A DNA stretch of 64,000 bases from Patescibacteria group bacterium. Its GTDB lineage: Bacteria > Patescibacteriota > Patescibacteriia > JAHJFT01. The notes below the pieces were generated by a model, which was not told the origin of the DNA, made no database searches, and saw nothing but the letters and a program-made list of their open reading frames with translations. This document shows positions 11,156 to 48,574 of this stretch, piece by piece. A program made the position numbers and the translations under genes. The stretch spans positions 523,014 through 587,013 of the forward strand of contig JAQTTB010000001.1 of NCBI GenBank assembly GCA_028710985.1, in the 5' to 3' direction. How positions within the stretch are numbered: the stretch's first letter is position 1; each line of letters starts with the position of its first letter.

Positions 11156-11156
11156 A

Positions 11157-12665
11157 TTATTTTTGTAAAAATTTTTCAAGCAGAACCTTCGTGATATTCG
11201 GATCCGCGGTTCCTTCGGATTTTATCATCACCTGGCCGACAAAAAATTGGATGAGCGCGGTTTTTCCGGCGCGGTAGGCCTCGGCCTTGTCCGGATTATC
11301 TTCAACTACCTGGCGGACGATTTGTTCAATTTCCGCTACGTCGCTCATCTGCCCGAGTTCGCGGTCCTCCATAATCTGGCTCGGATCCTGGCCGGTTTCA
11401 AGCATGGCTGCAAGAATTTTTTGCCCGGCGGCGCTGCCGACCTTATTCGCGTAAATTAGGCTCACGAATTCGGCGAAATTTTCCGGCGTGATTTTCAGAT
11501 TCTTGATGTCAATATTTTTATCCGCCATGGCGCCCGCGAGCTTGGAGCAGAGCCATCCGCCGACAAGTTTCGCGAGTTTATTCTTGTTCTTTTCGTAAAT
11601 TTCTTCGGACGTGCCGTCCAGGTCCGGAACCGACGCCAGCCATTCCTTGAGTTCGCTCACGGTGTTTTCCGCGTATTCGGCCCAGTCGAGGTCGCTCGTA
11701 AGAAACCGCGCGTTCTCGCCCGAAAATCCGTATTCATCCATGAATCTTTTTCTCTTGGCGGCCGGAAGCTCCGGCAGGGCGGATTTTGCGCGGGTAATCA
11801 TGTCGCCCAAATCAAGCGGGGGAATATCCGGTTCGGGAAAATAGCGGTAATCTTGCTCGGCTTCCTTGACGCGTTGTTCCACGGTTTCGCCCGCATCTTC
11901 GTCCCAGCCGCGGGTTGACTGCTGGCTCGGCGGCTTCCCCTGTCCCCAGAGTTTTTCCTGGCGCATGATTTCATATTCCAGTGCGCGTTCAACGGCCTTG
12001 AATGAATTCAGGTTTTTGATTTCGGTTTTCGGAAACAGAGTCTGCGTATCGGCCGGCCGCAAGCTTACATTGGCGTCGCAGCGCAGCTCGCCGCGCTCCA
12101 TGTCGGCGTTGGAAACTCCGAGATAGCGCATAATTGTGCGCAGCTCTTGCAAAAAAATTTTGGCTTCAAACGGAGTCGCGATGTCCGGCGCGGTCACGAT
12201 TTCAATGAGCGGGGTGCCGCCGCGGTTGTAATCAACCAGCGTGGCGTCTTTTTCATCGTGAAAAGATTTAGCCGCGTCTTCTTCAAGATGCACCCGGATG
12301 ATATTTATGCGGGCATAGTTGCGCGGTCCCTTCGGAATTTCGATTTCAAGATAGCCGTCCTTGGCGATCGGCATGTCGTATTGCGATATCTGGTAGCCTT
12401 TCGGCAGATCCGGATAGAAATAATTCTTGCGGTCGAATTTTGAACGTTCCTGGATCGTGCAGCCCAGGGCCGCCGCGGCGCGAATGCCGAATTCAATGGC
12501 CGTGGAATTCACCACCGGCAAAGCGCCCGGCTGGCCGGTGCAAACCGAACAGACCGCCGTATTAGCCGGAGTGCCGTCCGGCACATTGGCGCACGGACAG
12601 AACATCTTGGTTTTAGTCTTGAGCTGAACGTGTATTTCCAGCCCGATGACTGGCTGATATTGCAT
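11157..12665 (-). CDS. gatB: Asp/Glu-tRNA amidotransferase subunit B
   Basis: 502 aa. N-terminus MQYQPVIGLEIHVQL, GatB catalytic core and YqeY-like tail. Confidence 0.96.
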   Translation of the reverse strand: MQYQPVIGLEIHVQLKTKTKMFCPCANVPDGTPANTAVCSVCTGQPGALPVVNSTAIEFGIRAAAALGCTIQERSKFDRKNYFYPDLPKGYQISQYDMPIAKDGYLEIEIPKGPRNYARINIIRVHLEEDAAKSFHDEKDATLVDYNRGGTPLIEIVTAPDIATPFEAKIFLQELRTIMRYLGVSNADMERGELRCDANVSLRPADTQTLFPKTEIKNLNSFKAVERALEYEIMRQEKLWGQGKPPSQQSTRGWDEDAGETVEQRVKEAEQDYRYFPEPDIPPLDLGDMITRAKSALPELPAAKRKRFMDEYGFSGENARFLTSDLDWAEYAENTVSELKEWLASVPDLDGTSEEIYEKNKNKLAKLVGGWLCSKLAGAMADKNIDIKNLKITPENFAEFVSLIYANKVGSAAGQKILAAMLETGQDPSQIMEDRELGQMSDVAEIEQIVRQVVEDNPDKAEAYRAGKTALIQFFVGQVMIKSEGTADPNITKVLLEKFLQK

Positions 12666-25697: not shown

Positions 25698-25733
25698 AAA
25701 TGTATGGGTCGCATATATGCGCCCCGTACATTT
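25698..25733. repeat. GCATATATGC-core hairpin, family member 2
   Basis: AAATGTATGGGTC GCATATATGC GCCCCGTACATTT, between the convergent DUF3048 gene and prmC. The right arm overlaps the prmC stop. Confidence 0.8.
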
Positions 25734-26583
25734 ATTTTCCCCACCCAATTACTCTCACCCGTCCGCACATATCGTCATACGGTTTAATCCGGTCGCGCGG
25801 GCCGATAAATTTGATTATTTTTTTGCCCTGCTCGGGATCAATTTCGAAATATGACTGCATGGAGTTGAGATTTGGCAAAATTTTCCGAATCTCGTTGATT
25901 AGCCGTCCGTAATATTTAAGTCCGTCTTTGCCGCCGTCAAGCGCGGCGCGCGGCTCGTATTTTTTCACATCCGCGGGGCACTCGCGCCACACCGCGGTCG
26001 GAAGATAGGGGAGATTGGCCACGATCAAAATATTGGGATTCTTTTTCCAGAATTCAATCGGCAAAGCCTTGAGCAAATCGGATTTTATAAAATCAATCTT
26101 TGCGCCAAGTTTTTTCGCGTTTTGTCGCGCGGTCTTAAGCGCGGCCGCCGAATTATCAATCGCAATGACTTTTACGCGCGGCTTGTTTTTGGCAATCGCA
26201 ATGGCAAGCGCGCCCGAGCCGGTACCTACATCGATTACGGCTGCGCGCGGATGTTTATTCAAATACTTCAACGCCAGGCTCACAAGCATTTCGCTTTCCG
26301 GCCGTGGAATAAGAACCTTTTTATTCACGCCGATCTTGAGTTTGTAAAAATATTTTATGCCCGTGAGATAGGCGACTGGCTCATGCCTGGTGCGGCGCCG
26401 AATTAACTTGGTAAATCGCGCCAGCTCCGGTGCTCGCAATTCTCTGTCCCGGTGCGCGAACAAAAAAACCCGGTCGCGTCCGAGCGCGTGCGCCAATAGA
26501 ATTTCGGCATCGAGATCTGGTGAATCAATATGATTCTGTTGTAAAATTTTCATTGCCCTGGAAAGGGCTTGGGTGATGGTCAT
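25732..26583 (-). CDS. prmC: release-factor glutamine N5-methyltransferase
   Basis: 283 aa. SAM-binding VIDVGTGSGA. The catalytic tetrapeptide reads NLPY rather than NPPY. Confidence 0.88.
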   Translation of the reverse strand: MTITQALSRAMKILQQNHIDSPDLDAEILLAHALGRDRVFLFAHRDRELRAPELARFTKLIRRRTRHEPVAYLTGIKYFYKLKIGVNKKVLIPRPESEMLVSLALKYLNKHPRAAVIDVGTGSGALAIAIAKNKPRVKVIAIDNSAAALKTARQNAKKLGAKIDFIKSDLLKALPIEFWKKNPNILIVANLPYLPTAVWRECPADVKKYEPRAALDGGKDGLKYYGRLINEIRKILPNLNSMQSYFEIDPEQGKKIIKFIGPRDRIKPYDDMCGRVRVIGWGK

Positions 26584-26616: not shown

Positions 26617-26644
26617 GTAGGGGCGTATTGCAATACGCCCCTAC
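26617..26644. repeat. 28-nt hairpin GTAGGGGCGTATTGCAATACGCCCCTAC (left flank of orphan gene)
   Basis: Perfect palindrome; partner copy at 27388..27415. Confidence 0.85.
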
Positions 26645-26658
26645 AAGACGACCGCGCA

Positions 26659-26687
26659 TTGACAACCCGGCGCGATTTTGGTACAAA
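26659..26687 (+). promoter_or_regulatory. sigma70-like promoter of orphan gene 26777..27388
   Basis: TTGACA (26659..26664), 17-nt spacer, TACAAA (26682..26687). Confidence 0.45.
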
Positions 26688-26776
26688 TCAATATCCCGCC
26701 GGAATATTTCCGGCCGGAAAACCATGGGTAAGGCTGGCGTCGCAATGCGGCGTTGGTAGGCCCAAGGAGGAAAGAG

Positions 26777-27388
26777 ATGTCCGAAAAGAAAATGATGAGT
26801 CCGAGGCAACTTCGCGAGCTCATGGCCGTGGTCAGCCGGCACCTGTCTATTCATCTGCCGGCCAAGGTGGCGCAGAGCGTGATCGACAAGCCCGGCGATT
26901 TGGAGTTTGAGCTCTGCGAGCTCTTCTGGCGCATCGCCGAAGCGAACGAGAAGGCAAGAAGGGCGGTGGAAGCGAAGCACATCATCGACTGCGACGCCGA
27001 CCCCTATCTGCTCGGCCTCTTCACCGTGGAAGAGCACCGGAGAAGCGGTCAGTTGGAGTGGGACCCGGACAAGGTCGTTCTTTACCTTTCCGATTTGCAG
27101 AGGGGTCGTAGTGTTGTCCAGGGCCACGCGCTCCGCAAGGAACTCCAAAATCAGTCGGTTCTGAACGCCTGCGTCCTGGATTACCTGCTCGTTCATCCAA
27201 ACCTCATTCCCATCATGTGGATGAGGATGCGGGTCTACTTCTGGGGTACGATTTATTGCGATCGAGAAGGTGACCTCTGCGTTCGCGGCCTCTTCTGGGA
27301 AGACGAAAAAGGGTGGTTCTGGCGCTACAAGCATCTTTCGCACGATTTCTACCGCGACGACACCGCGGCGGTTTCTGCAAGCGTCTAG
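26777..27388 (+). CDS. hypothetical protein (orphan, G+C-rich)
   Basis: 203 aa from ATG 26777, preceded by AAGGAGG. Promoter 26659..26687, terminator 27429..27463. Trp/Cys-rich C-terminus. Bracketed by near-identical 28-nt hairpins. Confidence 0.7.
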   Translation: MSEKKMMSPRQLRELMAVVSRHLSIHLPAKVAQSVIDKPGDLEFELCELFWRIAEANEKARRAVEAKHIIDCDADPYLLGLFTVEEHRRSGQLEWDPDKVVLYLSDLQRGRSVVQGHALRKELQNQSVLNACVLDYLLVHPNLIPIMWMRMRVYFWGTIYCDREGDLCVRGLFWEDEKGWFWRYKHLSHDFYRDDTAAVSASV

Positions 27389-27415
27389 TAGCGGCGCATT
27401 GCAATACGCTGCTAC
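27388..27415. repeat. 28-nt hairpin GTAGCGGCGCATTGCAATACGCTGCTAC (right flank of orphan gene)
   Basis: Same length and same TTGCAA centre as 26617..26644, with substitutions on both arms and one G-U pair. Overlaps the stop codon. Confidence 0.8.
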
Positions 27416-27428
27416 GCGCCGACCCCCT

Positions 27429-27463
27429 GACCCGTTTGCATTAAATTGCAACGGGTCTTTTTT
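27429..27463 (+). terminator. intrinsic terminator
   Basis: GACCCGTT...AACGGGTC followed by TTTTTT. Confidence 0.75.
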
Positions 27464-27475
27464 ATTTAAATGCGA

Positions 27476-27621
27476 GTAGGGGCGGACCCCTGCGTCCGCC
27501 CTGTTCGTCGGGCGTCCGCCCCTACCATTTGTCGTCACCAACAAACGGCCGGTCGTCGATTTTCACCGCGTAGGGGCGAACGGCCGTTCGCCCCTACCGT
27601 TGATCCGTAATACGCCCCTAC
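27476..27621. repeat. cluster of GTAGGGGC-type palindromic units
   Basis: Units at 27476..27525 and 27570..27597 plus a half unit to 27621. The second unit recurs at 28494..28521. Confidence 0.8.
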
Positions 27622-27888
27622 CGGCGCAACCCCAATTCATTCCATTTGATTTTAGGGGGAGGTATGATACAATAATATCAATTTAAAATTAAATTAAAAT
27701 TATGGACAAAATCAACCCATCCATGCCCGGCGAGGCAAAAAATATGTCCGCGGTCTGGATAATCGTCGCCATCGTAATCGTCGCCGTCGCGCTCGGCGGA
27801 TTAATGTATTATTTTCAAACCCTGTCGCAAGAAAAATTCGTTGCGCAGGAACAGGCGATTAATGATTTGCGCGAAGAACTTGGTCAGC
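27567..27888 (+). repeat. tandem duplication, copy 1 (hairpin units, promoter, 5' UTR and first ~60 codons)
   Basis: Aligns with 28491..28817, including GTAGGGGCGAACGGCCGTTCGCCCCTACCGTTGATCCG.AATACGCCCCTACCGGCGCAACCCCAATTCATTCCATTTGATTTTA. Confidence 0.85.
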
Positions 27889-28421
27889 CGACGGTCGTGG
27901 CTGAGGAAGGGGTGGAAGAGGAAGGTTCGGCCGAGGAAGAATATCTTACCTTTGAATCCGAACCAGTTTCTGTTTTACCCGAGATATTCTCGTTTGAATA
28001 TGCCAAAGGTTGGCATATTTATCATGAATATGATCATGGATGGGGCGAGGAAAAAGAAATTAGCAAAATATTAGTTTCGCCTGACCCGCTTCAGATTGCG
28101 CTTGACGCCGAATATTTACCTCAAGTTTATATTCTTGTCGATTTTGACTCCGTGGATACTCTTGATGAGTTCGTCGATCGGAAGTATGGAGATTCGGTGG
28201 AAACGAGTGAGGACGTAATAATTGCCAACTATCCCGGAAAAAAGATACACGTTGTAGATGACAAGATCAGCGGAGAAGATATTGAGGTTTATGCCTTCGT
28301 ATCCCCCAATGCCGCGTATTCTATTTATATTTATTATCCCGGCATAAAACAAGCAAGCATTGACCTCCCGGCAGAATATCAGCGCATCATTGATTCATTC
28401 AAGATTGAGTCAGGCAGTTAA
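27702..28421 (+). CDS. hypothetical membrane-anchored protein, paralog 1
   Basis: 239 aa. The N-terminal ~60 aa (TM plus QTLSQEKFVAQE) are nearly identical to the next gene. Acidic linker, then a divergent C-domain. Confidence 0.75.
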   Translation: MDKINPSMPGEAKNMSAVWIIVAIVIVAVALGGLMYYFQTLSQEKFVAQEQAINDLREELGQPTVVAEEGVEEEGSAEEEYLTFESEPVSVLPEIFSFEYAKGWHIYHEYDHGWGEEKEISKILVSPDPLQIALDAEYLPQVYILVDFDSVDTLDEFVDRKYGDSVETSEDVIIANYPGKKIHVVDDKISGEDIEVYAFVSPNAAYSIYIYYPGIKQASIDLPAEYQRIIDSFKIESGS

Positions 28422-28490
28422 TCGCACGATTCAAAAAAGGCCGCGCGTTTATTGCCGGCCTTTTTGAATATACGCGCAGGGGCGTATTGT

Positions 28491-28817
28491 CGCGTAGGGG
28501 CGAACGGCCGTTCGCCCCTACCGTTGATCCGCAATACGCCCCTACCGGCGCAACCCCAATTCATTCCATTTGATTTTATCCGGGGGGGGGGTGGTATAAT
28601 GCAATCAATAATTAAATCATTAAAATACATATGGACAAACTAAATGCATCCATGCCCGGCGTGGCAAAAAATATGTCCGCGGTCTGGATTATCGTCGCTA
28701 TCATCATCGTTGCCGCAATTCTCGGCGGAATGATGTATTATTTTCAAACCCTGTCGCAAGAAAAATTCGTTGCGCAGGAAGAGGCGATTGAGGCTCTACG
28801 CGCCGAGTTAAGCGAAC
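28491..28817 (+). repeat. tandem duplication, copy 2
   Basis: See 27567..27888. Carries a TGGTATAAT extended -10 before ATG 28631. Confidence 0.85.
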
Positions 28818-29233
28818 CGGCCGCTTCAACTGCGGTAGAAGAAGAGGAGGCGGTTGCGGGAGATCAGGCCAAAGTCGAAGCAATTGATGAGCTTCAATAT
28901 GAAAACGATTATTATGGATTCAGCCTGTCATTCCCAGAGACATGGAGGGGCTATTCCGTTTATCATGAAGCCAATTCAATACATTTTGGTTTCGCGGCGG
29001 AGAAAGATCTCATGGCGATAGAAGTGATGGATTTGGAGGATTGGAAGATAATGAAAAAAGAATTGGATCTTCCGGGCCATGAAGCCGATGCGCTCTATAG
29101 CGCAGCCTACAGGGGCGAGAATGATAATTTCGCATTCTTTGGATGGGCGGCCCAAGACACGGTAAACGATGAGTTTATTCTTTCCAGAAGGATGGAAGTA
29201 GGGTCAATAATTAAAACGTTTAAAGCGAAATAG
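28631..29233 (+). CDS. hypothetical membrane-anchored protein, paralog 2
   Basis: 200 aa. Same N-terminal module and same upstream region as 27702..28421. Confidence 0.75.
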   Translation: MDKLNASMPGVAKNMSAVWIIVAIIIVAAILGGMMYYFQTLSQEKFVAQEEAIEALRAELSEPAASTAVEEEEAVAGDQAKVEAIDELQYENDYYGFSLSFPETWRGYSVYHEANSIHFGFAAEKDLMAIEVMDLEDWKIMKKELDLPGHEADALYSAAYRGENDNFAFFGWAAQDTVNDEFILSRRMEVGSIIKTFKAK

Positions 29234-35576: not shown

Positions 35577-35606
35577 AGTACGGGTAGCATATATGCGACC
35601 CGTACT
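35577..35606. repeat. GCATATATGC-core hairpin, family member 3
   Basis: AGTACGGGTA GCATATATGC GACCCGTACT flanked by an A-run and a T-run, between convergent genes. Confidence 0.8.
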
Positions 35607-35610
35607 TTTT

Positions 35611-37233
35611 TTAATATAATTCTTCTTTTTTCTCTTTGAAGAAATTCACAAAATCTTCAAGCGATTCAATGAGCGCCTTGAACGGCGCTTCAATTATAAC
35701 GTCAAAGATAAATATAAAGAAGTTGATTTTTACGGATTTGAGCGACAGCCATCGGCCGAGCCGGACAATCGGCAAAAAGAGCAGGTCAAAAATCAAAGTT
35801 ATGATATTGCCGCTCGAGCGAATGACGATAAGTTCGTGCGCACTTTGCCGGATTCTGACCCCGAAAAAGCTGATTAAGCTCAGGAACACAATGAATATCG
35901 CGCCGCTCGCGATATTGAATTCAAGTCGGCGCAACCCGTAAATGATAAGTCCAAGGACTCCGACAAAAACCACGGCGTAGATAATATTAAAAATGAAAGT
36001 TACAATCGGGCTGCGGCGCACCACGGTTTGCATGACGATTTTCCCCTGCTCTTCGGGGCTCTTAAAAATTATTTCGCGTAAACCGTCAACGATTTTTTCC
36101 GTGTTCTTTTTGGAAGGAACACGCACCGTCGCGCCGAGGAAGAACATGAGGAGCGGCGGGAAGAGTACGTTTATAGTAACCGGAATGTAGCGGAATTCAT
36201 GGGCGATATAAATATCAAACGGTACCTCGAGGAGAACCGCAAGCACCATTTTTGTGAGAAAAATATAGATCACACTGCGCACCATGCTGCGGCGCAGTTT
36301 GCTCCGGGATTCGTGATAACGGCTGTCGCAGGATTTCCGTATTTCTGAAAAAAACGCTTCTTCCGGACGGAAGGCTGTGCGCGCGAGTTCCGGCTTCTCG
36401 AGGAGTACATCCCGCAGAATGTCGAAAAACACCGTATGCTGCCGGAAGATGCGCAACATTTTTTCGCCGACCGGTTTAACGGCGATGGATTCAATCATTT
36501 TTATTATTTTTTCAAATTCGCGTGCGTAATTTTCTAAATTCTGCTCGCTTGGGGATGACCATTCGGGCCACATCTTTCTTATCATTTCGTAGCGGATGAT
36601 GCCCATGTCGGCTTTCCAGAGAGAACGGAGGTTTGCCACAAAAAGGAGGTAGTCTTTTTCCAGCTCACTCACGCGCAGATCCACGAAATGAACTTTATTG
36701 CTGACCGTCTGCAGCATGAACTGGAGAAGCGCGCGTTCGCGGTCCTTGGGCAGGAGAAGATCCTCAATTTCCGCGGCCGCGGCGCTCCAGAGCCAGTCGA
36801 TATTGCTCCGGTTGTAGGCGCGCGGGTCGGTTTCATTGATTTTTTCTAAAAGAAAAAAATACTTGGAGAGCACCTGCTCTATTTCAAGTATCTTTGTTTC
36901 CGGCACCGTATTATTTTTAAGATATCCGCCGCGGATAAGTTCGTAGGTCAGCGGCCGCGCGATTTCCTGGGATTCAACCCCCGGATAGATGCGGCGTTTG
37001 AGTATCCTCTGGATTGCATTTTTCCGGAGCAGATGGTCGTCCTTATAGTCAACAATGTTGCGGAATCTTTCGTAGACATAGGCAAGCGCGCCGATGATTA
37101 CGTTCACCTGAATCTTTGCGGCACTGGGAGCCGATTCGCCGGCGTGCATTGCCCGTACGTATGAGCTTAAAAATTTTTCCACCAGGGGATATAACTTTAT
37201 GGCCGAGGTGTTTTGCTGATTTGGAATCATCAT
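35611..37233 (-). CDS. large multi-pass membrane protein, function unknown
   Basis: 540 aa. Soluble helical N-terminal half, then about six TM helices in the C-terminal half. Confidence 0.7.
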   Translation of the reverse strand: MMIPNQQNTSAIKLYPLVEKFLSSYVRAMHAGESAPSAAKIQVNVIIGALAYVYERFRNIVDYKDDHLLRKNAIQRILKRRIYPGVESQEIARPLTYELIRGGYLKNNTVPETKILEIEQVLSKYFFLLEKINETDPRAYNRSNIDWLWSAAAAEIEDLLLPKDRERALLQFMLQTVSNKVHFVDLRVSELEKDYLLFVANLRSLWKADMGIIRYEMIRKMWPEWSSPSEQNLENYAREFEKIIKMIESIAVKPVGEKMLRIFRQHTVFFDILRDVLLEKPELARTAFRPEEAFFSEIRKSCDSRYHESRSKLRRSMVRSVIYIFLTKMVLAVLLEVPFDIYIAHEFRYIPVTINVLFPPLLMFFLGATVRVPSKKNTEKIVDGLREIIFKSPEEQGKIVMQTVVRRSPIVTFIFNIIYAVVFVGVLGLIIYGLRRLEFNIASGAIFIVFLSLISFFGVRIRQSAHELIVIRSSGNIITLIFDLLFLPIVRLGRWLSLKSVKINFFIFIFDVIIEAPFKALIESLEDFVNFFKEKKEELY

Positions 37234-39684: not shown

Positions 39685-40551
39685 ATGTTTATTTATCTTA
39701 TCCAAATAGTCTGTTTCGTGCTCTTCGGCGTTCTGGCAGTAATCGCGCTGCGCCGCCGTGAGCTTTGGACTTTGTTCGTGGCGACGATTTACGCCGCTTT
39801 TTTTGAAAATCTCGACATCATCATTTCCCGCGGAGAGTTTGGCAGTTACACCTATGATCCCCATCTTATCCTCATCGTCATTCAAACCCCGCTTTTTGTC
39901 ATTCTGTCCTGGGGCATAATTTTTTACTCATCATTCCTGCTTGCGAAAGGGCTGACCCGAAAGTTTTGGATTCAGGCGCTCTCCGTGCCTCTTCTCGCAA
40001 CAATTATAGATTTGACCATGGATCCGGTGGCCACACGGCTTGGGTTGTGGTCATGGCAGGGCTATGGCGCGCACGACGGCATTCTCGGCGTGCCGCTCGC
40101 GAATTTCATGGGCTGGTATCTCGTAGTGTTTGCACTCATGATCACCTTGCGCCTTATCGGTCACATTGATTTTTTGGGACGAACGGGCCGCAATGTCATC
40201 ATGCCAATTTTTTCCTGCGGGCTTTTTTTTATTTTTTTCGCTGCGTTCAGTTTTACGGCCAATGCGTTCGGCCTGAATATTTCAAATCAGTTTAATTTTA
40301 TCCAATTTTTCTTTCCGCCGGTTGCGGCGGCTTGCATTATCGGTTGGATATTATTTCCGGGAAAAATCAGCATCAGTCGTAGCCATCTTTTTTGGATGTA
40401 TGCATCGCGTGGGCTTTTCTACATATTTTCGGTTTACGGATTAATCGCTCTGGGCTTCTGGAAAGAGCCGGTGTTCATTATTCTGCTGGTCTTCTCGCTG
40501 GTTATCGAAATCATTGCAGGTATAAAATTTAAAATAAATGCCAAGACTTAG
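39685..40551 (+). CDS. multi-pass membrane protein (weak resemblance to DUF422/carotenoid-biosynthesis-protein family)
   Basis: 288 aa, about 8 TM helices. The motif DPVATRLGLWSW...GVPLANFMGWYLV resembles that family. Overlaps the next gene by 14 nt. Confidence 0.6.
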   Translation: MFIYLIQIVCFVLFGVLAVIALRRRELWTLFVATIYAAFFENLDIIISRGEFGSYTYDPHLILIVIQTPLFVILSWGIIFYSSFLLAKGLTRKFWIQALSVPLLATIIDLTMDPVATRLGLWSWQGYGAHDGILGVPLANFMGWYLVVFALMITLRLIGHIDFLGRTGRNVIMPIFSCGLFFIFFAAFSFTANAFGLNISNQFNFIQFFFPPVAAACIIGWILFPGKISISRSHLFWMYASRGLFYIFSVYGLIALGFWKEPVFIILLVFSLVIEIIAGIKFKINAKT

Positions 40552-41917
40552 CGCTTCACAGCTTTACAATTTTTCTCAGTGCCCCTACCGCGTCCACCTT
40601 GATATTTTCGGAGATGAGAAAGAGAAATCGCCGGAATCGGATTTCCTCGCCATGCTGATCGAGGAGGGCGTGCGTCATGAAAAAGACGCCATCGCTGAAA
40701 TGCCATTCTTAGAGGTGGAGGCGCGCGGCACGCTTACGGCACGAGCCGAAGTTACACGCGACCTGATGAAAAAGAAAACGCCCTGGATTTATCAGGGCGT
40801 GCTTCTGACTCGCACCATGGTCGGCATTCCTGATATTTTGGAATATACGGGCGGCCGGTATATCCCCGTGGAAATCAAGTCCGGTGCCGGTCTTAAGGAA
40901 GCGTATATCCAGCAAATCTGTTTTTACGATGAGTTGCTCGGCGAGCTTTTTGGACGTCGTTCGGGTCGCGGTAAAATAATAAATATCAAGAAAGAAATTT
41001 TGGAAGTGGACTGCAATGCCTCGCGTCGCGCCTTTCTTGATAACCTTGCCGCCCTTAAGAAAATCGCCTCGGGTGAAGAAGAGAGTGAGCTGGCCATCGG
41101 TTCGGATTGCAATAACTGCCACTGGAGAAAATTCTGCGAAGAAAAAGCGCGCGCCGAAGATGATCTTACTCTGATCCACGGTCTCGGCCGAGCGTTCAAA
41201 GAGGGGCTGAGGCAGGCCGGGATCAAAACCCAGGGCCAAGCCGCTAAGGTCGATCCGTCGCTCGCGCGCGAAATCCGGCGCCTCGGTCCGGCAAAGCTTG
41301 AAAAATTCCGCGAACAGGCTAAGGTGAACATTGCCGGCAAGATGATGGTTTTCGCGAGGCCCACGATGCGCTGCGCGCCCCTCGAGATATTCATCGATCT
41401 CGAAGGGGATCCGATGCTCGGGATAGACTACCTTATTGGTATGATCGTCCGAAAAAAGGGTAAGGAGCAGTATGTCAGCTTCGTTGCCCGCCGGCCCGAA
41501 GATGAGGCCGCGATGTGGGAGGAGTTCCTTAATTTCATGGCCGGCATCTCGGAAGATTACATTCTTTATCATTATCATAATTATGAAAAAGTGCATTTCA
41601 AGATGCTGTTCGAAAAATATGGCGGCGACGGAGAGCTTTATCATGAAATCGACTATGCGCTCGAGGATCTGAAGAGAACGATCGATAAATCAATGTATCT
41701 TCCGCTTACGCGCTATAGCCTCAAGTGCGTTGCGCGCCATTTGGGTTTTGAATGGCGCGCGGGAGAAGAGGCCGGAGGCGCAAATTCCATTATCTGGTAC
41801 GAGAAATATCTTGGGGATACTGAAAAGAATGCAGATTTGATGCAAAAAATTATTGACTACAATGCCGATGACTGCCGCGCGACCCGTGTGGTCAAAGACT
41901 GGCTTGAGAAAATTTGA
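40538..41917 (+). CDS. RecB/Cas4-like PD-(D/E)xK nuclease with C-terminal RNase H-like domain (TM0106-type)
   Basis: 459 aa. N-terminal Cys (SQCPY) plus CNNCHWRKFC cluster, nuclease motif IPDILEY...IPVEIKSG. C-terminal IFIDLEGDP ... YNADDCRAT exonuclease-like fold. Confidence 0.75.
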   Translation: MPRLSASQLYNFSQCPYRVHLDIFGDEKEKSPESDFLAMLIEEGVRHEKDAIAEMPFLEVEARGTLTARAEVTRDLMKKKTPWIYQGVLLTRTMVGIPDILEYTGGRYIPVEIKSGAGLKEAYIQQICFYDELLGELFGRRSGRGKIINIKKEILEVDCNASRRAFLDNLAALKKIASGEEESELAIGSDCNNCHWRKFCEEKARAEDDLTLIHGLGRAFKEGLRQAGIKTQGQAAKVDPSLAREIRRLGPAKLEKFREQAKVNIAGKMMVFARPTMRCAPLEIFIDLEGDPMLGIDYLIGMIVRKKGKEQYVSFVARRPEDEAAMWEEFLNFMAGISEDYILYHYHNYEKVHFKMLFEKYGGDGELYHEIDYALEDLKRTIDKSMYLPLTRYSLKCVARHLGFEWRAGEEAGGANSIIWYEKYLGDTEKNADLMQKIIDYNADDCRATRVVKDWLEKI

Positions 41918-44047: not shown

Positions 44048-44452
44048 ATGGCAGAAGAGAAAAAAGACGTCGTGGTTCCGGAAAAATTCAAGAAGCTCGT
44101 TGAGGAAGTTGAAAAAATGAGCGTACTTGATCTCTCGGAACTCGTTAGCATTCTTGAGGATAAATTCGGCGTTTCGGCCGCCGCTCCGGCAGTTGCCGTT
44201 GCCGCCGCCGCTCCAGTCGCCGCCGAAGCCGCCGATGAAAAGACCGAGTTCAATCTTGAACTCCTTGAAGCCGGCGCCAACAAGATCAACGTGATTAAGG
44301 TGGTTCGTGAAGTCACGGGTTTAGGCCTCGCCGATGCCAAGGCCATCGTTGACAGCGCACCGAAGATAGTGAAAGAAGCCATGCCAAAGGCTGATGCCGA
44401 AGCCGCCAAAAAGAAGATTGAGGAAGCCGGCGGAAAAGCAGCTCTCAAATAA
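44048..44452 (+). CDS. rplL: 50S ribosomal protein L7/L12
   Basis: 134 aa. Ala-rich hinge and C-terminal domain [24 protein letters not shown]. Confidence 0.96.
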
Positions 44453-44459
44453 TTGGTTA

Positions 44460-44504
44460 CAAAATAAAAAAAGAACGGCCGTGTAATTATGCGGCCGTTC
44501 TTTT
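44460..44504. repeat. left copy of the duplicated terminator hairpin flanking the RT island
   Basis: CAAAATAAAAAAAGAACGGCCG (22/22 identical to 46293..46314), then a variable loop and GGCCGTTCTTTT. Serves as the rplL terminator. Confidence 0.85.
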
Positions 44505-44513
44505 GATTTTTTT

Positions 44514-44542
44514 AAAAAAAGAGGCATCGCGTTTGCGATGCC
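44514..44542 (-). terminator. intrinsic terminator of the RT gene
   Basis: Stem GGCATCGC / GCGATGCC (44523..44530 / 44535..44542) followed on the minus strand by a T-run (plus-strand A-run 44514..44520). Lies 13 nt after the RT stop. Confidence 0.7.
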
Positions 44543-44554
44543 CGAGCGGCGTAG

Positions 44555-45460
44555 TTAAATACCGAGTTTTCTTAATGCCCTCAGTCCGTTAAAGCGGTCG
44601 ACGAGCTTGGTTTCAGTGCGGTTGTGCGGAGCACAGTATTCGGTCGCCCCCCAGAAAGCGCCCATCATGCCAGCGGCCTGGGCAAAATTTGCACGGCCGC
44701 GTTTGACCGAGTACAGGCGGCCGCGTATCTTGCGCAGATAGTGCCGCGGGATAAAGATGCGGCTGGTCTTATCCATGGCAATGCCGTTGATGACCACCGG
44801 AGCCTTTTGGATGTCGCGGACAATGGATTTCTTATGGTTGATCTGGAATCCAGCCGCGAGAATGATGCGCCGTATCATCTGCCGCTTTCTTTTGCCGATC
44901 GGTTCAGTCGCCGAAAAGGTCAGGTCGTCGAGATAGCGCGTATAGATGATGCCGTGGCGCCGGCAGAATTCGCCGAGCGGCCGGTCAAGAAGTTCGCCGG
45001 CATAGCGGTTGGCAAGATCCGGCGAAGCCGGCGCGCCGGTTGCGAGCCCACCCTCGTCTGCTATGCAGTACTTATTAAGAAAGGCGAGAAGCCCTGTCTC
45101 GTCCTCCATCAGCCGTTCGTCAAGATTCATGAGTATCCCGGCGAGCCGCTCGGCGTCCACGCTCGGATAGAAATTGTGGATGTCGGTGAGGTAGAAAAAG
45201 CGGTTGCCGCGGTGCCGGAGCACATTTTTCTTGGGGGATGAGCCGCGCATCGCGCCGGTGGCGTGCGGCAGGGGATGGTGCTCGAGAAGGTGGCGCCGCA
45301 AGTAAAAGATTAGCCCGCGGTGGACCTGGCGCATCGCGTTATTTGGCGCGTAGAGCGTGCGCATTTTTACGGTCTTCGCTACCGGATTTACGTCTCTGTA
45401 GGTAAATTTGTTGAACCCCGGAGTCCCATCTATGTTTTTCAGAATTATATCAAAGAGCAT
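44555..45460 (-). CDS. retron-type reverse transcriptase (stand-alone, 301 aa)
   Basis: ATG 45460 with AAGGAGG 6 nt upstream. RT motifs in order: RTLYAPNNAMRQVHRGL (1), ATGAMRGSSPKKNVLRH (2, NAxxH-like NVLRH), FFYLTDIHNFYPSV (A), GLATGAPASPDLANRY (B), YTRYLDDLTFS (C), GFQINHKKS (D/E), VVINGIAMD (retron VTG position). Confidence 0.88.
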   Translation of the reverse strand: MLFDIILKNIDGTPGFNKFTYRDVNPVAKTVKMRTLYAPNNAMRQVHRGLIFYLRRHLLEHHPLPHATGAMRGSSPKKNVLRHRGNRFFYLTDIHNFYPSVDAERLAGILMNLDERLMEDETGLLAFLNKYCIADEGGLATGAPASPDLANRYAGELLDRPLGEFCRRHGIIYTRYLDDLTFSATEPIGKRKRQMIRRIILAAGFQINHKKSIVRDIQKAPVVINGIAMDKTSRIFIPRHYLRKIRGRLYSVKRGRANFAQAAGMMGAFWGATEYCAPHNRTETKLVDRFNGLRALRKLGI

Positions 45461-45492
45461 GGCGCCCTCCTTATAGATTTTTGTGTAGGTTG

Positions 45493-45521
45493 ATTTTAGT
45501 ACAGCGCCGAATAAAATGCAA
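45493..45521 (-). promoter_or_regulatory. sigma70-like promoter of the RT gene
   Basis: Minus strand: TTGCAT (45521..45516), 17-nt spacer, TAAAAT (45498..45493). Located between the copy-A terminator and the RT RBS. Confidence 0.55.
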
Positions 45522-45538
45522 GTAAATTTTTTTGGTAT

Positions 45539-45569
45539 AAAAAACGCATCAAACCAGGGGTTTGACGCG
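45539..45569 (-). terminator. intrinsic terminator ending ncRNA copy A
   Basis: 11-bp stem (45545..45555 / 45559..45569) plus U-run (plus-strand A-run 45539..45544). The one non-Watson-Crick position is G-U on the minus strand but A-C on the plus strand. Confidence 0.75.
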
Positions 45570-45914
45570 AAGGGAGAAACCCGATTTTCATCGGGCAGTG
45601 AATTCACAGCGGCGGGTTGGCCAAGTTCGTTGCCCGATTCTGGGTTCTGCGGACAACGATCAAGAGAACAGACTTTGCCGCTGAGGCTTCGATGCAGGGC
45701 CGAAACGGCAGCGCCGAGGCCGCAGGCCGGGGCGCCCTCTGTGCCGAAAGAAGAAGAGAAGGGGCGGATACTATGGCAATTTCCGTTTCCGGAAATCCCG
45801 CTGGCGCACCTTGATGCGCCAACCCTCGTGGGCAAGAGCACTTTGGCGTCCAGCCAGAACCAGGAAACCGTCTTGGCCAACCCGGACTGGACTTGGCTTT
45901 ATCCTATCATAAAC
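45539..45914 (-). ncRNA. RT-associated structured RNA, copy A (RT-proximal)
   Basis: Ends in hairpin plus U-run (45539..45569). Shares helices with copy B. 13-bp long-range helix 45613..45625 / 45872..45884. The 5' end is not determined. Confidence 0.6.
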
Positions 45915-45947
45915 AAAAAAACGCATCAAACCAGGGGGTTTGATGCG
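45915..45947 (-). terminator. intrinsic terminator ending ncRNA copy B
   Basis: Perfect 11-bp stem CGCATCAAACC / GGTTTGATGCG (45922..45932 / 45937..45947) plus a 7-nt U-run on the minus strand. Confidence 0.8.
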
Positions 45948-46292
45948 AAGAGAGAGAGTCCCGACTCGGTCGGGAAGAAAGTGCAGCGGCGGGTTTGAGT
46001 CATTGTCCGCAAGGGACTTTCCGGGCATGGGAGCTTGCCGCTGAAGATACCCGTGGCGTCCGAGGGCACTGAACAACGGGCCGAATCAGCCACTGCGGCC
46101 GCTGATCCGCCTCATGCAGATACCAACGGGAGCGCTTCGGGTTGCCCAGGGGCGATGGGGTACTGTTCAAAGCCCTGGTTTAACCCTTTGGCGCACCTGA
46201 AATGCGCCAAGACGATGAGCACCGAGGATCTCACCCGGAATGAACTAGCTCAAACCCAGCCAAGGTGGCTATGAAGAGGGTAGCATAAAATT
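45915..46292 (-). ncRNA. RT-associated structured RNA, copy B (RT-distal)
   Basis: Ends in hairpin plus U-run (45915..45947). 9-bp long-range helix 45991..45999 / 46249..46257, at the position equivalent to copy A's helix but with a different sequence. The 5' end is not determined. Confidence 0.6.
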
Positions 46293-46336
46293 CAAAATAA
46301 AAAAAGAACGGCCGCGATATCGTGGGCCGTTCTTTT
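46293..46336. repeat. right copy of the duplicated terminator hairpin flanking the RT island
   Basis: Same 22-mer and same 3' arm as 44460..44504. Serves as terminator of the 745-aa gene on the minus strand. Confidence 0.85.
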
Positions 46337-48574
46337 TTATTCGCTGAATCCGAAATTCCAGACGCCGTTGTCGGCCAGCACCCAGATTTGGCGTGCCGTG
46401 CGATCGATGTAAAAACTTTTTATATTCTGCAGGTCGTTCAGGAGGTATTGAGTTTTGAGTTTACCGTCCTTGGCCAGTACTACAACACGTTTTCCGGCCG
46501 GGTCAAGAATAAATATATTGTCCGTACCCTCGGTCGTCCAAATTTGCGTCGCGCCCGTCAGCGCGGGATCAATGGTCGTAGCCGACCAGGATTGTTTTTC
46601 ACCGGTATAGAATTTATAAATTTCACCATTTGATTTCAGGGCGTAAATCGAGCCGTCAATCGTAATGGCGACTGCGTCCGAAAGATTGACATTCGCAGTT
46701 TTAATCCAGGCCGCGCCGGCCGCGAGCCCGGAATCGGGCGAGCGGTGCTGCTTAAATATTTGGTTCGCCGTGGTGTCCAAGACATAAATATTTGAATTCC
46801 AGCCGGCCGCGTCAATAAAGCTCTTTTGTTCGGCCGCGGCGGCGAGGGGAACGTCCCTCCACGAAAGTCCGGCCACGTCAATTTCCGAAGCCCCTGGGCG
46901 CTGGTCGAAAACCAAATATGAATTATCGCCGGATTTGTAAATCGCGGTAATGCTTTGTATATCCGCATTTTCCCAGTCAACTTCCTGCCAGGCATTCGCG
47001 TCGTCGCGCCAGACATAAAGTTCTTTTGCCCCGGAAAGAATCAAAGTTTTATCGGCGTTTCGCAGGAGATAACGAAAGTTAATCGTCTGGCCTTCGGCGC
47101 TGAGCGGCATGTCGGCGACTTTCTCTAAATCGTTTGGAATGACTTCATGGCGGAGCTCTTGGCGTAAAATATCAATTTGGGCGAGAAGTCCCTGTTTGAT
47201 TTCGCGCTGATCGCGCTTTGCTTCCGGTAGCGACTGGATTGCGGATAGCGCTTGGCTCACAAGCTCACGCGTGCGTTCCTCGTCGCCGTAGATCAGGGTA
47301 CTCTCGGCCTCGTCTTTTATTTGAGTGATCTCAATCACTTTATTATTATAAACCGCCTCGTCTTCGCGTGCATGTTTCCGATAGTTGAGATAAATCAGGC
47401 TCCATGCAAAAAGTAGCACCAGGATAAGGGCGATGATAAAAACCGATTTATTTTTCTTGCCGAGATGGCTGAACCAGCCGACCGAGCGGTCTCCGGTTTC
47501 CTGGGCATCGCTCTTATAGCTCGCGATGGTTTCGGCGCGTTTGCCGTGGAAGTTCGTAATGATAAAAAATAAGTTTTTGAAGAAGCGGCCGGTGATGCCG
47601 ATTGCGCGGAGCGTGATGGCACCGATCCAAATAAAGAATTTGGCAATGCTCCGGGGGAGTTCGCGCGGGGTTGGAGCGATTTTTTCCTCATATTTCGGGC
47701 CGCGTATTGGTATCAGTCGTGAAATTACCGCAGTGAGCCCAGCCCAAATCTTTGAGGCAAACCCAGTGCCGCCGCCTAAAAGATATCGGTCGGTTTCCGC
47801 GGTAGTCGCCTTAAGATGCTCAAGCGAACCTCGGAAATTCTTCGGTGCCGCCGCTTCGGTGCCGACCGGGATAAGTTCTTCATAATGCTGGATGATAATG
47901 GCCGTATATCCGCCGCGCAGACTGCCGTGCAAAAGTTCATTGCGCAGATATTCGACGGATTCGACCGGTTTTTTCGCGGTTACAATCGGCAACAGCCGTT
48001 CTTCGGGGAAGGCTTCGGCCAGTTCGGAGTTTGAGATTATTATGGCATCCCCGCTTTGGATGGAGCCGTACATTACATTTTCAAAAATTTTAACGGGATT
48101 AAAATTATCCGGATCGGATTGAACGTTCTTCGTAAGATCAAAAACGCGGTAACCTTTGCCATCCTGCTTCTGGAAAAACATCATTTTATTCTGGCCGATC
48201 GCGGAGAACGAAAGGTCCGTGCCGGAGCAAGCGGCGATTAAGATATTCAATTTCTTAAGATCCACCGGATTGGATTCTTTGGAGATAAAATCCGTGATAT
48301 TTTTATTGGTCGCCTGTAGGGATTTTTCAAACTCCGCGCCAAAGTCAATGCCATGCTCTTCCTGATAAAATTTTTCAATGCCGTCGATAAAGTTTTCGGT
48401 CAAACGTTCGTAGGCTGGATGGATGGAGTCGATTTTAATAATGCCAAAAATAGATCCGCCTTCATGCGCCGCACCCGGTGGAATTTCAAAATTAAAAACG
48501 CGGTTAATGCATTGGCGGTTCGTTGCGCTTTCTAGGAAAAGCTCGTTTATGAGTATCTCCGGCTTCTTTGACAT
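46337..48574 (-). CDS. large hypothetical membrane protein with C-terminal repeat (beta-propeller-like) domain
   Basis: 745 aa. Cytoplasmic N-domain, two TM helices mid-protein. The C-terminal half has recurring hydrophobic-Y/W-V-L-D type strands (IYVLD, IYALK, IFILD, IWVLAD). Confidence 0.75.
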   Translation of the reverse strand: MSKKPEILINELFLESATNRQCINRVFNFEIPPGAAHEGGSIFGIIKIDSIHPAYERLTENFIDGIEKFYQEEHGIDFGAEFEKSLQATNKNITDFISKESNPVDLKKLNILIAACSGTDLSFSAIGQNKMMFFQKQDGKGYRVFDLTKNVQSDPDNFNPVKIFENVMYGSIQSGDAIIISNSELAEAFPEERLLPIVTAKKPVESVEYLRNELLHGSLRGGYTAIIIQHYEELIPVGTEAAAPKNFRGSLEHLKATTAETDRYLLGGGTGFASKIWAGLTAVISRLIPIRGPKYEEKIAPTPRELPRSIAKFFIWIGAITLRAIGITGRFFKNLFFIITNFHGKRAETIASYKSDAQETGDRSVGWFSHLGKKNKSVFIIALILVLLFAWSLIYLNYRKHAREDEAVYNNKVIEITQIKDEAESTLIYGDEERTRELVSQALSAIQSLPEAKRDQREIKQGLLAQIDILRQELRHEVIPNDLEKVADMPLSAEGQTINFRYLLRNADKTLILSGAKELYVWRDDANAWQEVDWENADIQSITAIYKSGDNSYLVFDQRPGASEIDVAGLSWRDVPLAAAAEQKSFIDAAGWNSNIYVLDTTANQIFKQHRSPDSGLAAGAAWIKTANVNLSDAVAITIDGSIYALKSNGEIYKFYTGEKQSWSATTIDPALTGATQIWTTEGTDNIFILDPAGKRVVVLAKDGKLKTQYLLNDLQNIKSFYIDRTARQIWVLADNGVWNFGFSE

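Follow-up and report, generated by a model that had tools for sequence, protein, structure and literature searches.

A retron-like reverse transcriptase cassette inserted at a shared terminator hairpin in a Patescibacteria genome, with the terminator duplicated on both sides

Ever since retrons and other RT-based defence-like cassettes were discovered, their means of spread has been unclear: they carry no mobility genes, yet they are patchy in distribution and compositionally foreign. Retrons combine a reverse transcriptase (RT), an msr-msd noncoding RNA (ncRNA) and an effector, and retron RTs carry a VTG motif. In E. coli, retron-Eco5 (Ec107) took the place of a 34-bp intergenic palindrome and has no mobility features around it (Herzer, Inouye & Inouye 1992, summarised in PMC6868368). 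Group IIC (bacterial class C) introns, which also encode an RT, are found immediately beside intrinsic terminator hairpins (PMC1702495). Direct repeats of the target bracket the islands that duplicate att sites, as with a tyrosine integrase at tRNA 3' ends or the Xer-dependent IMEX at dif, and homology-facilitated illegitimate recombination is a defined process in natural transformation (PMC3240628). In published surveys, the RTs of Patescibacteria are mostly DGRs (PMC8632793).

Here we describe an RT cassette between rplL and a 745-aa gene in a 64-kb stretch of Patescibacteria DNA (the window). Like retron-Eco5, it is a minimal cassette of ncRNA and RT without an accessory mobility gene, located at an intergenic palindrome between conserved host genes, with empty sites in relatives and no prophage or transposon features. 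Unlike retron-Eco5, in which the palindrome was replaced, the palindrome in the window was kept and duplicated on both sides; moreover, the host belongs to the Patescibacteria, there are two ncRNA units, and the RT falls in a distinct clade below the NCBIfam retron cut-offs. In the case of group IIC introns, the hairpin stays single and the insertion lies downstream of it. The RT element of the window likewise adjoins an intrinsic terminator hairpin, but here the duplication takes in the whole hairpin, no ribozyme was detected by Rfam, and the RT falls outside the group II maturases. As in the att-duplicating islands, the insert is bracketed by direct repeats of its target, which in such islands can be an inverted-repeat-plus-spacer site, and a sister cassette (L037) is itself such an islet; in contrast to them, no integrase was found in the window, and the target is a gene terminator rather than a tRNA gene or dif. 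The locus also resembles homology-facilitated illegitimate recombination, a route of naturally transformable bacteria in which foreign DNA is joined although one or both ends have little or no homology, and in which duplications of recipient sequence are possible. It differs in that the window shows just the 45-bp hairpin and no evident long anchor of homology.

The features of the locus are listed in Table 1. A sequence-only reading had claimed that direct repeats surround the RT island, and the repeat search confirmed it. The two copies match over 49 nt with 76% identity ungapped. The opening 22 nt (CAAAATAAAAAAAGAACGGCCG) and the 3' arm (GGCCGTTCTTTT, 12-13 nt) are identical in both, and the mismatches are confined to the central ~11 nt; outside the loops, 34 of 34 repeat positions agree, among them 13 unpaired A-tract bases. 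The loops (TGTAATTATG versus CGATATCGTG) match at 5 of 10 positions, that is, they are unrelated; the copies are thus not near-identical throughout, as those of a recent target-site duplication would be. Inversion of the loop as the cause of this dissimilarity was rejected, with only 3 of 10 positions matching in the reverse complement.

Table 1. Features of the rplL/745-aa locus in the window (coordinates are positions in the window)
Feature	Position	Strand	Evidence
rplL (ribosomal protein L7/L12), left host flank	44048..44452	+	Pfam Ribosomal_L12, Ribosomal_L12_N
Left bidirectional terminator copy (predicted)	44460..44508	.	terminator scan: 16-pair stem, loop 4, T-tail; fold -24.0 kcal/mol
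Inserted RT-ncRNA segment between repeat copies, 1,788 nt	44505..46292	-	absent from six orthologous empty sites
RT's own intrinsic terminator (predicted), inside insert beside left copy	44543-44522	-	terminator scan: 9-pair stem GGGCATCGC/GCGATGCCT then CTTTTTTT
Retron-type reverse transcriptase (predicted), 302 aa, YLDD catalytic box	44555..45463	-	Pfam RVT_1
ncRNA unit 1, RT-proximal	45538..45912	-	inverted repeat with 31-nt arms; family HMM match 45815-45749
ncRNA unit 2, distal, diverged paralogue of unit 1	45915..46290	-	direct repeats, terminator scan, sequence reading
Right bidirectional terminator copy (predicted)	46293..46341	.	repeat search; fold -23.4 kcal/mol; sequence reading
745-aa lineage-specific protein, right host flank	46337..48574	-	no Pfam, PADLOC or NCBIfam match

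In each copy the hairpin lies between an A-tract and a T-tract, read directly from the sequence, which makes termination possible in both directions. Together with the GC-rich stem-loop and the adjoining convergent stops, the A-tract 5' and T-tract 3' are those of a bidirectional intrinsic (rho-independent) terminator. The left copy starts 7 nt past the rplL stop (44452), and the right copy abuts (0 nt) the stop codon of the 745-aa gene (46337-46339), with its T-tract directly upstream of the -10-like TATGCT of ncRNA unit 2. The right copy is predicted to terminate the 745-aa gene on the minus strand, and the left copy would terminate rplL on the plus strand. This agrees with the sequence-only reading, with the qualification that the 745-aa gene, convergent with rplL, is co-directional with the RT and the ncRNAs, and that the RT has its own terminator.

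In the 64-kb window, which is part of a genome of at least 744 kb, the hairpin (written as the pattern GAACGGCCG-N(8-12)-GGCCGTTC) has no further copy: exact matches to the 11-nt core AAAGAACGGCC are only the four arms of the two hairpins, no third site for the 22-mer was found in the 64 kb with up to 3 mismatches, and 100 shuffles gave 0 matches. The possibility that such hairpins are so abundant that two flanking copies mean little thus found no support within the 64 kb, where the 22-mer occurs at just two sites. Three dispersed terminators in the window (at 11127, 25701 and 35577) are 71-79% alike, and GTAGGGGCG...CGCCCCTAC palindromes occur at 26617-28530. An Rfam search at E<=10 over 44400-46400 gave only terminator-like chance matches on the two hairpins.

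Relatives of the host show the locus before insertion. The 745-aa protein has nine homologues (53-61% identity), in Patescibacteria only. In six independent relatives with a homologue of 53-61% identity, rplL and the 745-aa gene are directly convergent with no RT between them. All six empty sites carry a single A-tract/hairpin/T-tract, that is, one bidirectional terminator, in a spacer of 54-58 nt in five relatives and of 220 nt in one. The comparison with RT-less relatives, which had been proposed from the sequence alone, therefore came out positive, with one hairpin in each rather than two, and the postulated single ancestral bidirectional terminator is what these relatives have. Direct repeats on either side of an insert, where orthologous empty sites have one copy only, are the footprint of an insertion. 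Deleting the DNA between the repeats reconstructs a 51-nt empty site in the window with a predicted fold of -23.6 kcal/mol. The hairpin of one empty site (L004) has AAAAAAAGAAC...GTTCTTTTTTATT in common with that of the window, which suggests that the window hairpin is native to the rplL/745-aa locus. The closest of these relatives is only 61% identical in the 745-aa protein, below the level of a strain, so that the exact junctions of the insert are not provable. An exact-protein look-up of rplL returned three contigs, all occupied (3/3) and none a strain-level empty site, and that of the RT with an ATG start returned no record.

The insert differs in composition from its surroundings. Its GC content of 0.557 is exceeded by no 1.8-kb interval in the 64 kb, and the GC3 of the RT is 0.70, compared with 0.49-0.58 in ten host genes; both indicate a foreign composition. 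With its absence from the six empty sites, this establishes the RT/ncRNA module as an insertion, as had been claimed. The RT matched PADLOC retron RT models at up to 1.6e-34, and its best PDB matches are all retron RTs, the top one being Ec86 (2e-19). Against NCBIfam retron_St85_RT it scored 116 bits (cut-off 235), with no single retron type prominent, and it reads PVVINGI where retron RTs have VTG. The group II model TIGR04416 (group_II_RT_mat) gave 22 bits against a cut-off of 300. By these matches the RT appears to be of the retron type and the cassette retron-like.

Both ncRNA units are closed by a long stem followed by CCGCTG and end in their own terminator: unit 1 pairs 45884-45854 with 45643-45613 (terminator 45569-45545), and unit 2 pairs 46259-46248 with 46001-45990 (terminator 45947-45922). 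As in retrons, the RT is closest to retron RTs and is adjacent to a structured ncRNA, on the RT strand, with a long closing stem like a1/a2. Unlike retrons, the cassette has no conserved effector in 82 loci of the family, and in the window only the RT and ncRNAs lie between the repeats; the closing stem has a conserved CCGCTGA after its 3' arm, and the units are often doubled and lie on either side of the RT.

We found no recombinase inside the insert, where the RT is the only ORF with family matches; specifically, no tyrosine or serine recombinase lies between the window repeats, as one does in the sister locus L037, and no homologue of the L037 integrase is present in the 64-kb window. No transposase was found by Pfam, the ends have no inverted repeats apart from the hairpin arms, and the bracketing repeats of the family vary from 27 to 49 nt among loci, none of which fits an IS or transposon. 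The core sites R''/R' of attC in integron gene cassettes follow the consensus RYYYAAC/GTTRRRY, with an IntI integrase nearby; the arms AAAGAAC/GTTCTTT do not fit this consensus, and there is no integrase in the window. No Rfam family reached the gathering threshold in the 64 kb, and no group II ribozyme domains were detected, whether in the window at that threshold or in 44400-46400 at E<=10. No second RT or further ncRNA was found elsewhere in the window.

The cassette belongs to a hitherto undescribed retron-like family of Patescibacteria whose members pair an RT with one or two long ncRNAs and lack an effector. For the RT, the closest relative shares ~50% identity, and each window or locus has a single copy. 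Among 82 loci no neighbour gene is conserved, and no neighbour family is common to more than 8 of the 82. The core motif of the family ncRNA was found in 46 loci, every time on the RT strand, and at least 21 loci have closing stems that pair at no fewer than 12 of 13 bp with differing sequences (covariation). The ncRNA units, ~370 nt long, are frequently doubled and lie upstream or downstream of the RT. The many unrelated contexts without a conserved neighbour gene, with the foreign GC, bear out the claim of a horizontally exchanged cassette.

The scar recurs in the RT family. At least three further independent lineages (L032, L056/L058 and L089) have terminator-like hairpins, specific to each locus, that bracket the RT and ncRNA, the pair of L032 with z=10.4. 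Nearly every pair of hairpin repeats found in the 588 kb of flanking DNA touches an RT/ncRNA module. In L058, the redundant hairpin copy has extra changes relative to its orthologue L056, and this decay fits a duplicated target. The copies of L089 differ at the central base only. No bracketing hairpin is common to two loci, and the search for the window 22-mer beside other copies of the RT, which had been put forward with the claim, found none. Since all bracketing hairpins are locus-specific and the 22-mer accompanies no other RT, the sequences support a repeat that was derived from the target rather than carried by the element. For L032, the protein of the flanking gene was found in 13 contigs, all occupied (13/13) with no empty site among them; its sole other relative is 87% identical. 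The proposal that the cassette targets terminator hairpins holds in part: duplicated hairpins recur at L032, L056/L058 and L089, but most of the ~70 non-redundant RT-family loci have no bracketing repeat, and other routes were taken at L037, L028 and L090. L037 encodes a tyrosine integrase (Pfam Phage_integrase, 4e-30), and the tRNA-Ala 3' end is repeated there over 57 nt. In L028, the 5' end of miaA is duplicated as a 105-118-nt repeat with mismatches clustered at one end, and the insertion carries a donor gene fragment (DUF1653), which resembles homology-facilitated illegitimate recombination. In L090/L091, copies of the module's own 145-nt leader lie on both sides of it, and the L090 and L101 cassettes are 84% identical with unrelated flanks.

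Several other repeats were examined as candidate footprints. Those of L011 and L038 proved to be a second ncRNA copy downstream of the RT, and the pair of L010 consists of two paralogous tRNA-Arg genes. The 145-nt repeat of L090/L091/L030 was rejected as a duplication of a host target, since part of the leader also lies upstream of the related L101 RT and is module-derived. The contig ends of L030 share 34 identical nt, and an assembly break within the 145-nt repeat is equally possible there. A 34-nt pair in L084 is ambiguous, being promoter-like, 4 kb apart and beside an IS transposase, and a 19-nt GC hairpin pair in L068 is weak evidence. Hairpin pairs also bracket small non-RT ORFs beside the RT in L094 and in L015, where the pair is inverted, unlike that of the window; the scar may therefore not be specific to the cassette. 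No phage or plasmid vector of the cassette was found in IMG/VR, GenBank phages or PLSDB. IMG/VR gave one weak relative of the RT family (25% identity), and GenBank phages and PLSDB plasmids gave only distant retron-type RTs (up to 30% identity). The 22-mer had no match in JGI metagenomes, and its one exact match in IMG/VR, in a phage tape-measure ORF without the 3' arm, was dismissed as chance.

That the cassette was horizontally acquired and that the terminator was duplicated are both well supported. The explanation we favour, and taken whole regard as likely, is that a foreign cassette inserted at a shared terminator, duplicating it, and that host functions were the likely joiner. The ancestral junction of rplL and the 745-aa gene had one bidirectional intrinsic terminator serving both convergent genes. 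The 1.79-kb cassette entered at this terminator, probably at the DNA level, to be transcribed in the order promoter-ncRNA2-terminator, promoter-ncRNA1-terminator, retron-type RT and RT terminator, and the insertion left a full ~45-bp terminator on each side as a long target duplication. Both copies may have been retained because each has a job. The left copy would prevent rplL transcription from entering the RT antisense and would back up RT termination, and the right copy would stop the 745-aa gene and insulate the ncRNA promoter. Because the cassette has no recombinase, transposase or conserved ends, integration was most likely host-mediated, for example by illegitimate or microhomology-driven joining at the A/T tracts, at a replication-stalling hairpin, or after DNA uptake. 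The RT itself probably did not carry out the integration, and the promoter-like DNA in inserts (upstream of the ncRNA in L056) and the lack of a poly(A)-type end point to insertion of DNA rather than through RNA. The apparent preference for terminators may be partly survivorship, as insertions that keep both terminators would be harmless.

The feature that this favoured explanation accommodates least well is the loops. A simple recent duplication followed by drift does not readily account for identical arms and 13 identical unpaired A-tract bases around unrelated loops; duplication would need either strong selection on all but the loop, or remodelling such as quasi-palindrome template switching. 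Of the two routes offered by the sequence-only reading, the unlike loops seem to fit recombination through the hairpin better than a simple recent duplication. In such an att-like or Campbell-type event, which we consider rather unlikely overall, a circular or linear cassette with its own same-armed hairpin would cross over with the chromosomal hairpin, through RecA, using the 22 identical nt, or through a trans-supplied recombinase for which the inverted repeat plus spacer is the core site. Identical arms around unrelated loops follow directly from this model and from no other, the crossover falling in the arms and one loop each coming from the element and the chromosome. L037, with its integrase and tRNA-Ala repeat, integrates in this way, the one-ended mismatches and DUF1653 fragment of L028 are as in homology-anchored integration, the leader-flanked L090/L091 module and the identical ends of L030 are compatible with a circular or tandem form, and families of similar terminators and palindromes are dispersed in the window. 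However, a GC-richer donor cassette would need a hairpin that matches an AT-rich native terminator exactly over 22+12 nt, no third copy of the hairpin was found in the window, in JGI metagenomes or beside other RTs, no integrase lies in or near the island, and 22 nt is short for RecA-mediated exchange.

We consider it very unlikely that the cassette moved itself, with the RT and ncRNA recognising terminator hairpins as group IIC introns do and the hairpin being duplicated through target-primed reverse transcription between nicks that are staggered across the A- and T-tracts. Long repeats coinciding with A/T-flanked hairpins are found again and again on both sides of an RT cassette that lacks other mobility genes, nearly all the hairpin pairs in the flanking DNA touch such a module, group IIC introns are a precedent for terminator-homing retroelements (PMC1702495), and the insert in the window ends with the RT terminator T7 followed by A7. 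Nevertheless, this is a retron-type RT, and mobility is not known for retrons (PMC6868368); neither a group II ribozyme nor a group II maturase was recognised. The insert of L056 includes promoter DNA, and the hallmarks of retro-insertion (a transcript-limited insert, a poly(A) end and conserved termini) are absent across the window locus, L056, L032 and L089. The ~50% identity of the nearest RT and the single copy per window or locus give no sign of recent transposition bursts, integration in other family members goes through an integrase or gene-end homology, and hairpin pairs also flank non-RT ORFs. It is hardly to be expected that the Patescibacteria retron-like RT-ncRNA cassettes form a self-mobile or RT-assisted class that homes to intrinsic terminator hairpins and duplicates the whole hairpin. 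If true, this would be the first evidence of a retron-type retroelement moving itself, with a target choice convergent with that of group IIC introns, and small neighbour ORFs might be mobilised in trans. Scarcely credible, and already largely refuted, is the idea that there is no footprint, only two terminators alike by chance, from an abundant family or through later gene conversion: the window does hold the other similar-hairpin families given above, but 13 bases of the 22-nt identity lie outside the stem, the 64 kb has no further copy, with none expected by chance, RT-less relatives have one hairpin rather than two, and the pair brackets exactly the compositionally foreign segment.

With six empty sites and one occupied, the locus gives an unusually clean before-and-after picture of the arrival of a retron-like cassette. 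Insertion into a shared terminator would preserve termination for both neighbours through the duplication, and the duplicated terminator offers a practical signature to delimit such cassettes in metagenome bins. The finding raises the question of whether the duplication is made by host repair, by a trans-acting recombinase or by the RT, and it hints that terminator hairpins may be preferred or tolerated entry points in streamlined genomes.

Comparison of the two ends of the RT island confirmed that a terminator hairpin is duplicated around it, as the sequence-only reading had claimed. Hairpin A, the left copy, lies 7 nt past the end of rplL and reads CAAAATAAAAAAAGAACGGCCG-TGTAATTATG-CGGCCGTTCTTTT on the + strand. 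Hairpin B, the right copy, has the same 22-mer and 3' arm with CGATATCGTG as its loop, and adjoins the stop codon (46337-46339, - strand) of the 745-aa gene, which is convergent with rplL and co-directional with the island. A repeat search of the window listed the pair as direct repeat D1. With up to 3 mismatches allowed, the 22-mer was found at 2 sites in the 64 kb and in 0 of 100 shuffles, and exact matches to the 11-nt hairpin core were restricted to the four arms of the two hairpins; the idea of an abundant hairpin family thus fails within the 64 kb. Both copies are predicted to fold strongly (-24.0 and -23.4 kcal/mol), and since each has an A-tract and a T-tract, both are predicted to be bidirectional terminators. 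Their loops are unrelated, yet the copies agree at all 34 remaining positions, 13 of them unpaired bases of the A-tract; the right loop holds a perfect palindrome (CGATATCG).

Features of the island and its borders in the window
Feature	Position	Strand	Remarks
rplL	44048-44452	+	Pfam Ribosomal_L12, L12_N
Hairpin A	44460-44508		left terminator copy
RT's own terminator	44543-44522	-	terminator scan; just inside hairpin A
RT, 302 aa	45463-44555	-	Pfam RVT_1
ncRNA unit 1	45912-45538	-	own terminator 45569-45545
ncRNA unit 2	about 46290-45915	-	own terminator 45947-45922
Hairpin B	46293-46341		right terminator copy

Other repeated hairpins were seen in the window. Three dispersed terminators (11127-11164, 25701-25738, 35577-35614) have the hairpin TGTA.GGGTCGCATATATGCGACCC.TACATTTTTT in common and are 71-79% alike; thus, this genome has related terminators at sites that are not linked. 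Region 26617-28530 has at least 5 copies of a GTAGGGGCG...CGCCCCTAC palindrome family, two of which (26617, 27388) bracket a 211-aa ORF (26753-27388), beside paralogous membrane-anchored genes (27702-28421, 28631-29233) in a ~925-nt tandem repeat. One exact copy of the 22-mer in the IMG/VR contig L141 (4705-4726), within a 760-aa phage tape-measure-like ORF, has no hairpin partner and was rejected as a coincidence.

The window comes from a Patescibacteria MAG. A search with the 745-aa protein gave nine homologues (53-61% identity), and contigs could be assigned to six of them. In all six relatives rplL is directly convergent with the 745-aa homologue, flanking synteny is kept, and the junction carries no RT. 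Each spacer has one A-tract/hairpin/T-tract; it measures 58, 57, 57, 57 and 54 nt in five relatives, and 220 nt in L131, where an extra AT-rich palindrome lies beside the terminator. When the sequence between the repeats is removed from the window, a 51-nt spacer with a predicted fold of -23.6 kcal/mol is left. Because the hairpin of the relative L004 also contains AAAAAAAGAAC...GTTCTTTTTTATT, sequence comparison suggests that the hairpin is native to this locus. The insert itself is compositionally foreign: GC3 of the RT is 0.70 vs 0.49-0.58 in ten host genes, and the insert GC (0.557) is the maximum among all 1.8-kb windows of the 64 kb. Taken together, the six RT-free relatives with one hairpin each bear out a single ancestral bidirectional terminator, and the possibility that such relatives carry two hairpins fails outright. 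The empty-site test proposed in the sequence-only reading thus supports horizontal acquisition and insertion of the RT/ncRNA cassette with duplication of the terminator.

In this lineage (window 44048-48574; L002, L004, L005, L128, L129 and L131), rplJ-rplL is followed by the convergent 745-aa gene, not by rpoB. The conserved 745-aa protein has no detectable domain, and beyond its gene lies a conserved block encoding HTH-like 197-aa, ~135-aa and 492-aa glycosyltransferase-like proteins. In L131 (2428-3938), besides its long palindrome spacer, a methyltransferase gene is inserted between rplJ and rplL; this ribosomal-protein neighbourhood therefore accepts insertions repeatedly. At 40538-41917 the window encodes a 459-aa protein with Cas4/PD-(D/E)XK and RNase_H_2 domains, beside a Peptidase_C39-like gene, also in relatives.

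Read along the - strand, the island runs from hairpin B through ncRNA unit 2, ncRNA unit 1, the RT and the RT terminator to hairpin A. Motifs in common mark the two ncRNA units (together 45538-46290) as diverged paralogues of ~370 nt, and each has a separate promoter-like TATGMT and terminator; no Rfam family matched in the window or the island. The best PADLOC and NCBIfam matches of the RT are retron RTs (1.6e-34; retron_St85_RT at 116 bits, under the model cut-off of 235), and its best PDB matches are all retron RTs, with Ec86 first (2e-19). Group II maturase and DRT models scored far under their cut-offs.

The RT family comprises more than 100 clusters, nearly all from Patescibacteria, of ~300 aa and 40-50% identity to the window RT. 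A review put about 80% of the RTs in Patescibacteria down as DGRs (PMC8632793), and we found no account of a Patescibacteria retron-like family in the literature. We retrieved 48 RT loci from species genomes and 72 from metagenomes, and screened 82 loci (588 kb) for RT-bracketing repeats. A sequence HMM found the ncRNA core in 46 RT loci, in every case on the strand of the RT; which side of the RT it lies on, downstream or upstream, differs between loci (L010, L036, L065, L067, L068, L073, L079, L088, L089, L090, L095 and L101 vs L056, L028, L011 and others). The core is enclosed by a closing stem of 12/13 bp or better in at least 21 loci, and since the stem is kept while its sequence varies by locus, the stem shows covariation. 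A conserved (C)CGCTGA always follows the stem, and no Rfam family matches this ncRNA. Doubled ncRNAs occur in at least 8 other loci (L011, L013, L015, L026, L038, L043, L074, L093), either as a tandem ahead of the RT or with the RT between the copies; the bracketing "repeats" of L011 and L038 are such second copies and were discarded. No conserved neighbour protein family was found in the 82 loci, the commonest occurring in 8. As judged from sequence, the module is therefore a retron-like RT with ncRNA(s) and without an effector.

Terminator-like hairpins bracket the RT and ncRNA in other family members: CTGAGCC..GGCTCTTTTTCTTT in L032 (z=10.4; a stop codon precedes each copy, and the insert also has two small ORFs), AAATAAAAATTGCCCAG.GATGGGC.TTTT in L056 and its orthologue L058 (native role, terminator of a 173-aa gene; the redundant copy in L058 has extra changes), TTTATAGGTTTC.GAAACCTATAAA in L089 (ncRNA downstream of the RT), and a 19-nt GC hairpin in L068, a weak case. 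Since each is locus-specific, these hairpins come from the target; they are no conserved component of the cassette. In two further RT loci, hairpin pairs bracket small ORFs adjoining the RT. In L094 (1969-5438), the RT/ncRNA module and an antisense 193-aa ORF (no Pfam match) separate rplB from rpsS within the S10 ribosomal-protein operon, and the duplicated hairpin (2819-2851, 3487-3519) brackets this ORF, not the RT. In L015 (1567-2156), two copies of CCCCGCCCCGACGTGACATCGGGGCGGGG surround a 152-aa ORF directly downstream of the RT, and are mutually inverted by loop (1 mismatch as reverse complement, 4 as direct repeat).

Most screened RT loci had no detectable bracketing repeat, and some family members integrate by other routes. 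L037 (2958-6226) is a ~3.2-kb minimal integrative islet in tRNA-Ala(tgc), with a 57-nt att repeat of the tRNA 3' end, a 162-aa ORF, a tyrosine integrase (Phage_integrase), the ncRNA and the RT. In L028 (4147-5950; = L086), the RT module lies between two copies of the miaA 5' end (105-118 nt, first ~38 codons). The copy on the left is truncated, a pseudogene joined to a donor-derived DUF1653 gene fragment, and mismatches between the copies cluster at one end (first ~25 nt). This resembles homology-anchored illegitimate integration (PMC3240628). L090/L091 has three copies of a 145-nt unit, and because the leader part of this unit also precedes the L101 RT (84% identical) in unrelated flanks, the repeat is module-derived. 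One cassette is thereby seen in two unlike settings. In L101 (564-3666), the neighbours of the cassette, which is 84% identical to that of L090, include a putative restriction enzyme, a LexA-like/C5-methyltransferase fusion and other small ORFs, a defence-island-like context. The proposal that the cassette targets hairpins has partial support: bracketing hairpins recur (L032, L056/L058, L089), but most loci lack repeats and others took other routes.

The insert is DNA that brings its own promoters and terminators and is enclosed by two complete copies of the native terminator. It has no conserved ends or transcript-shaped boundaries, and no recombinase or transposase was found in it or nearby in the window. 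The nearest precedent is retron-Eco5/Ec107, which replaced a palindromic 34-bp intergenic sequence with no mobility features nearby (PMC6868368), whereas the window palindrome is duplicated. Group IIC introns also adjoin terminators (PMC1702495), but their defining ribozyme and maturase are absent from the island. The most economical reading is that host-mediated DNA insertion at the hairpin would have duplicated a ~45-bp target. The loops differ where the 34 other positions are identical, which is at odds with a duplication that is both simple and recent. Such a pattern would follow if a resident and an incoming copy had recombined through the hairpin. For that, however, the foreign cassette must have had the same arms as the native terminator, and no sign of this was found in JGI metagenomes or the other RT loci. 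Possibly, template switching in quasi-palindromes remodelled the loop; the right one has the palindrome given above. RT-driven homing to the hairpin is possible with little support: the RT is of retron type, for which mobility is not known (PMC6868368); promoter DNA is part of the inserts; no near-identical copies of recent origin were seen; and other family members integrate by other routes. Insertion and terminator duplication are thus supported, whereas targeting of hairpins, and the way in which it would work, has partial support. With host-mediated insertion and target duplication, both terminator copies would then have been kept, as termination and insulation are required by the cassette and by the gene on either side.
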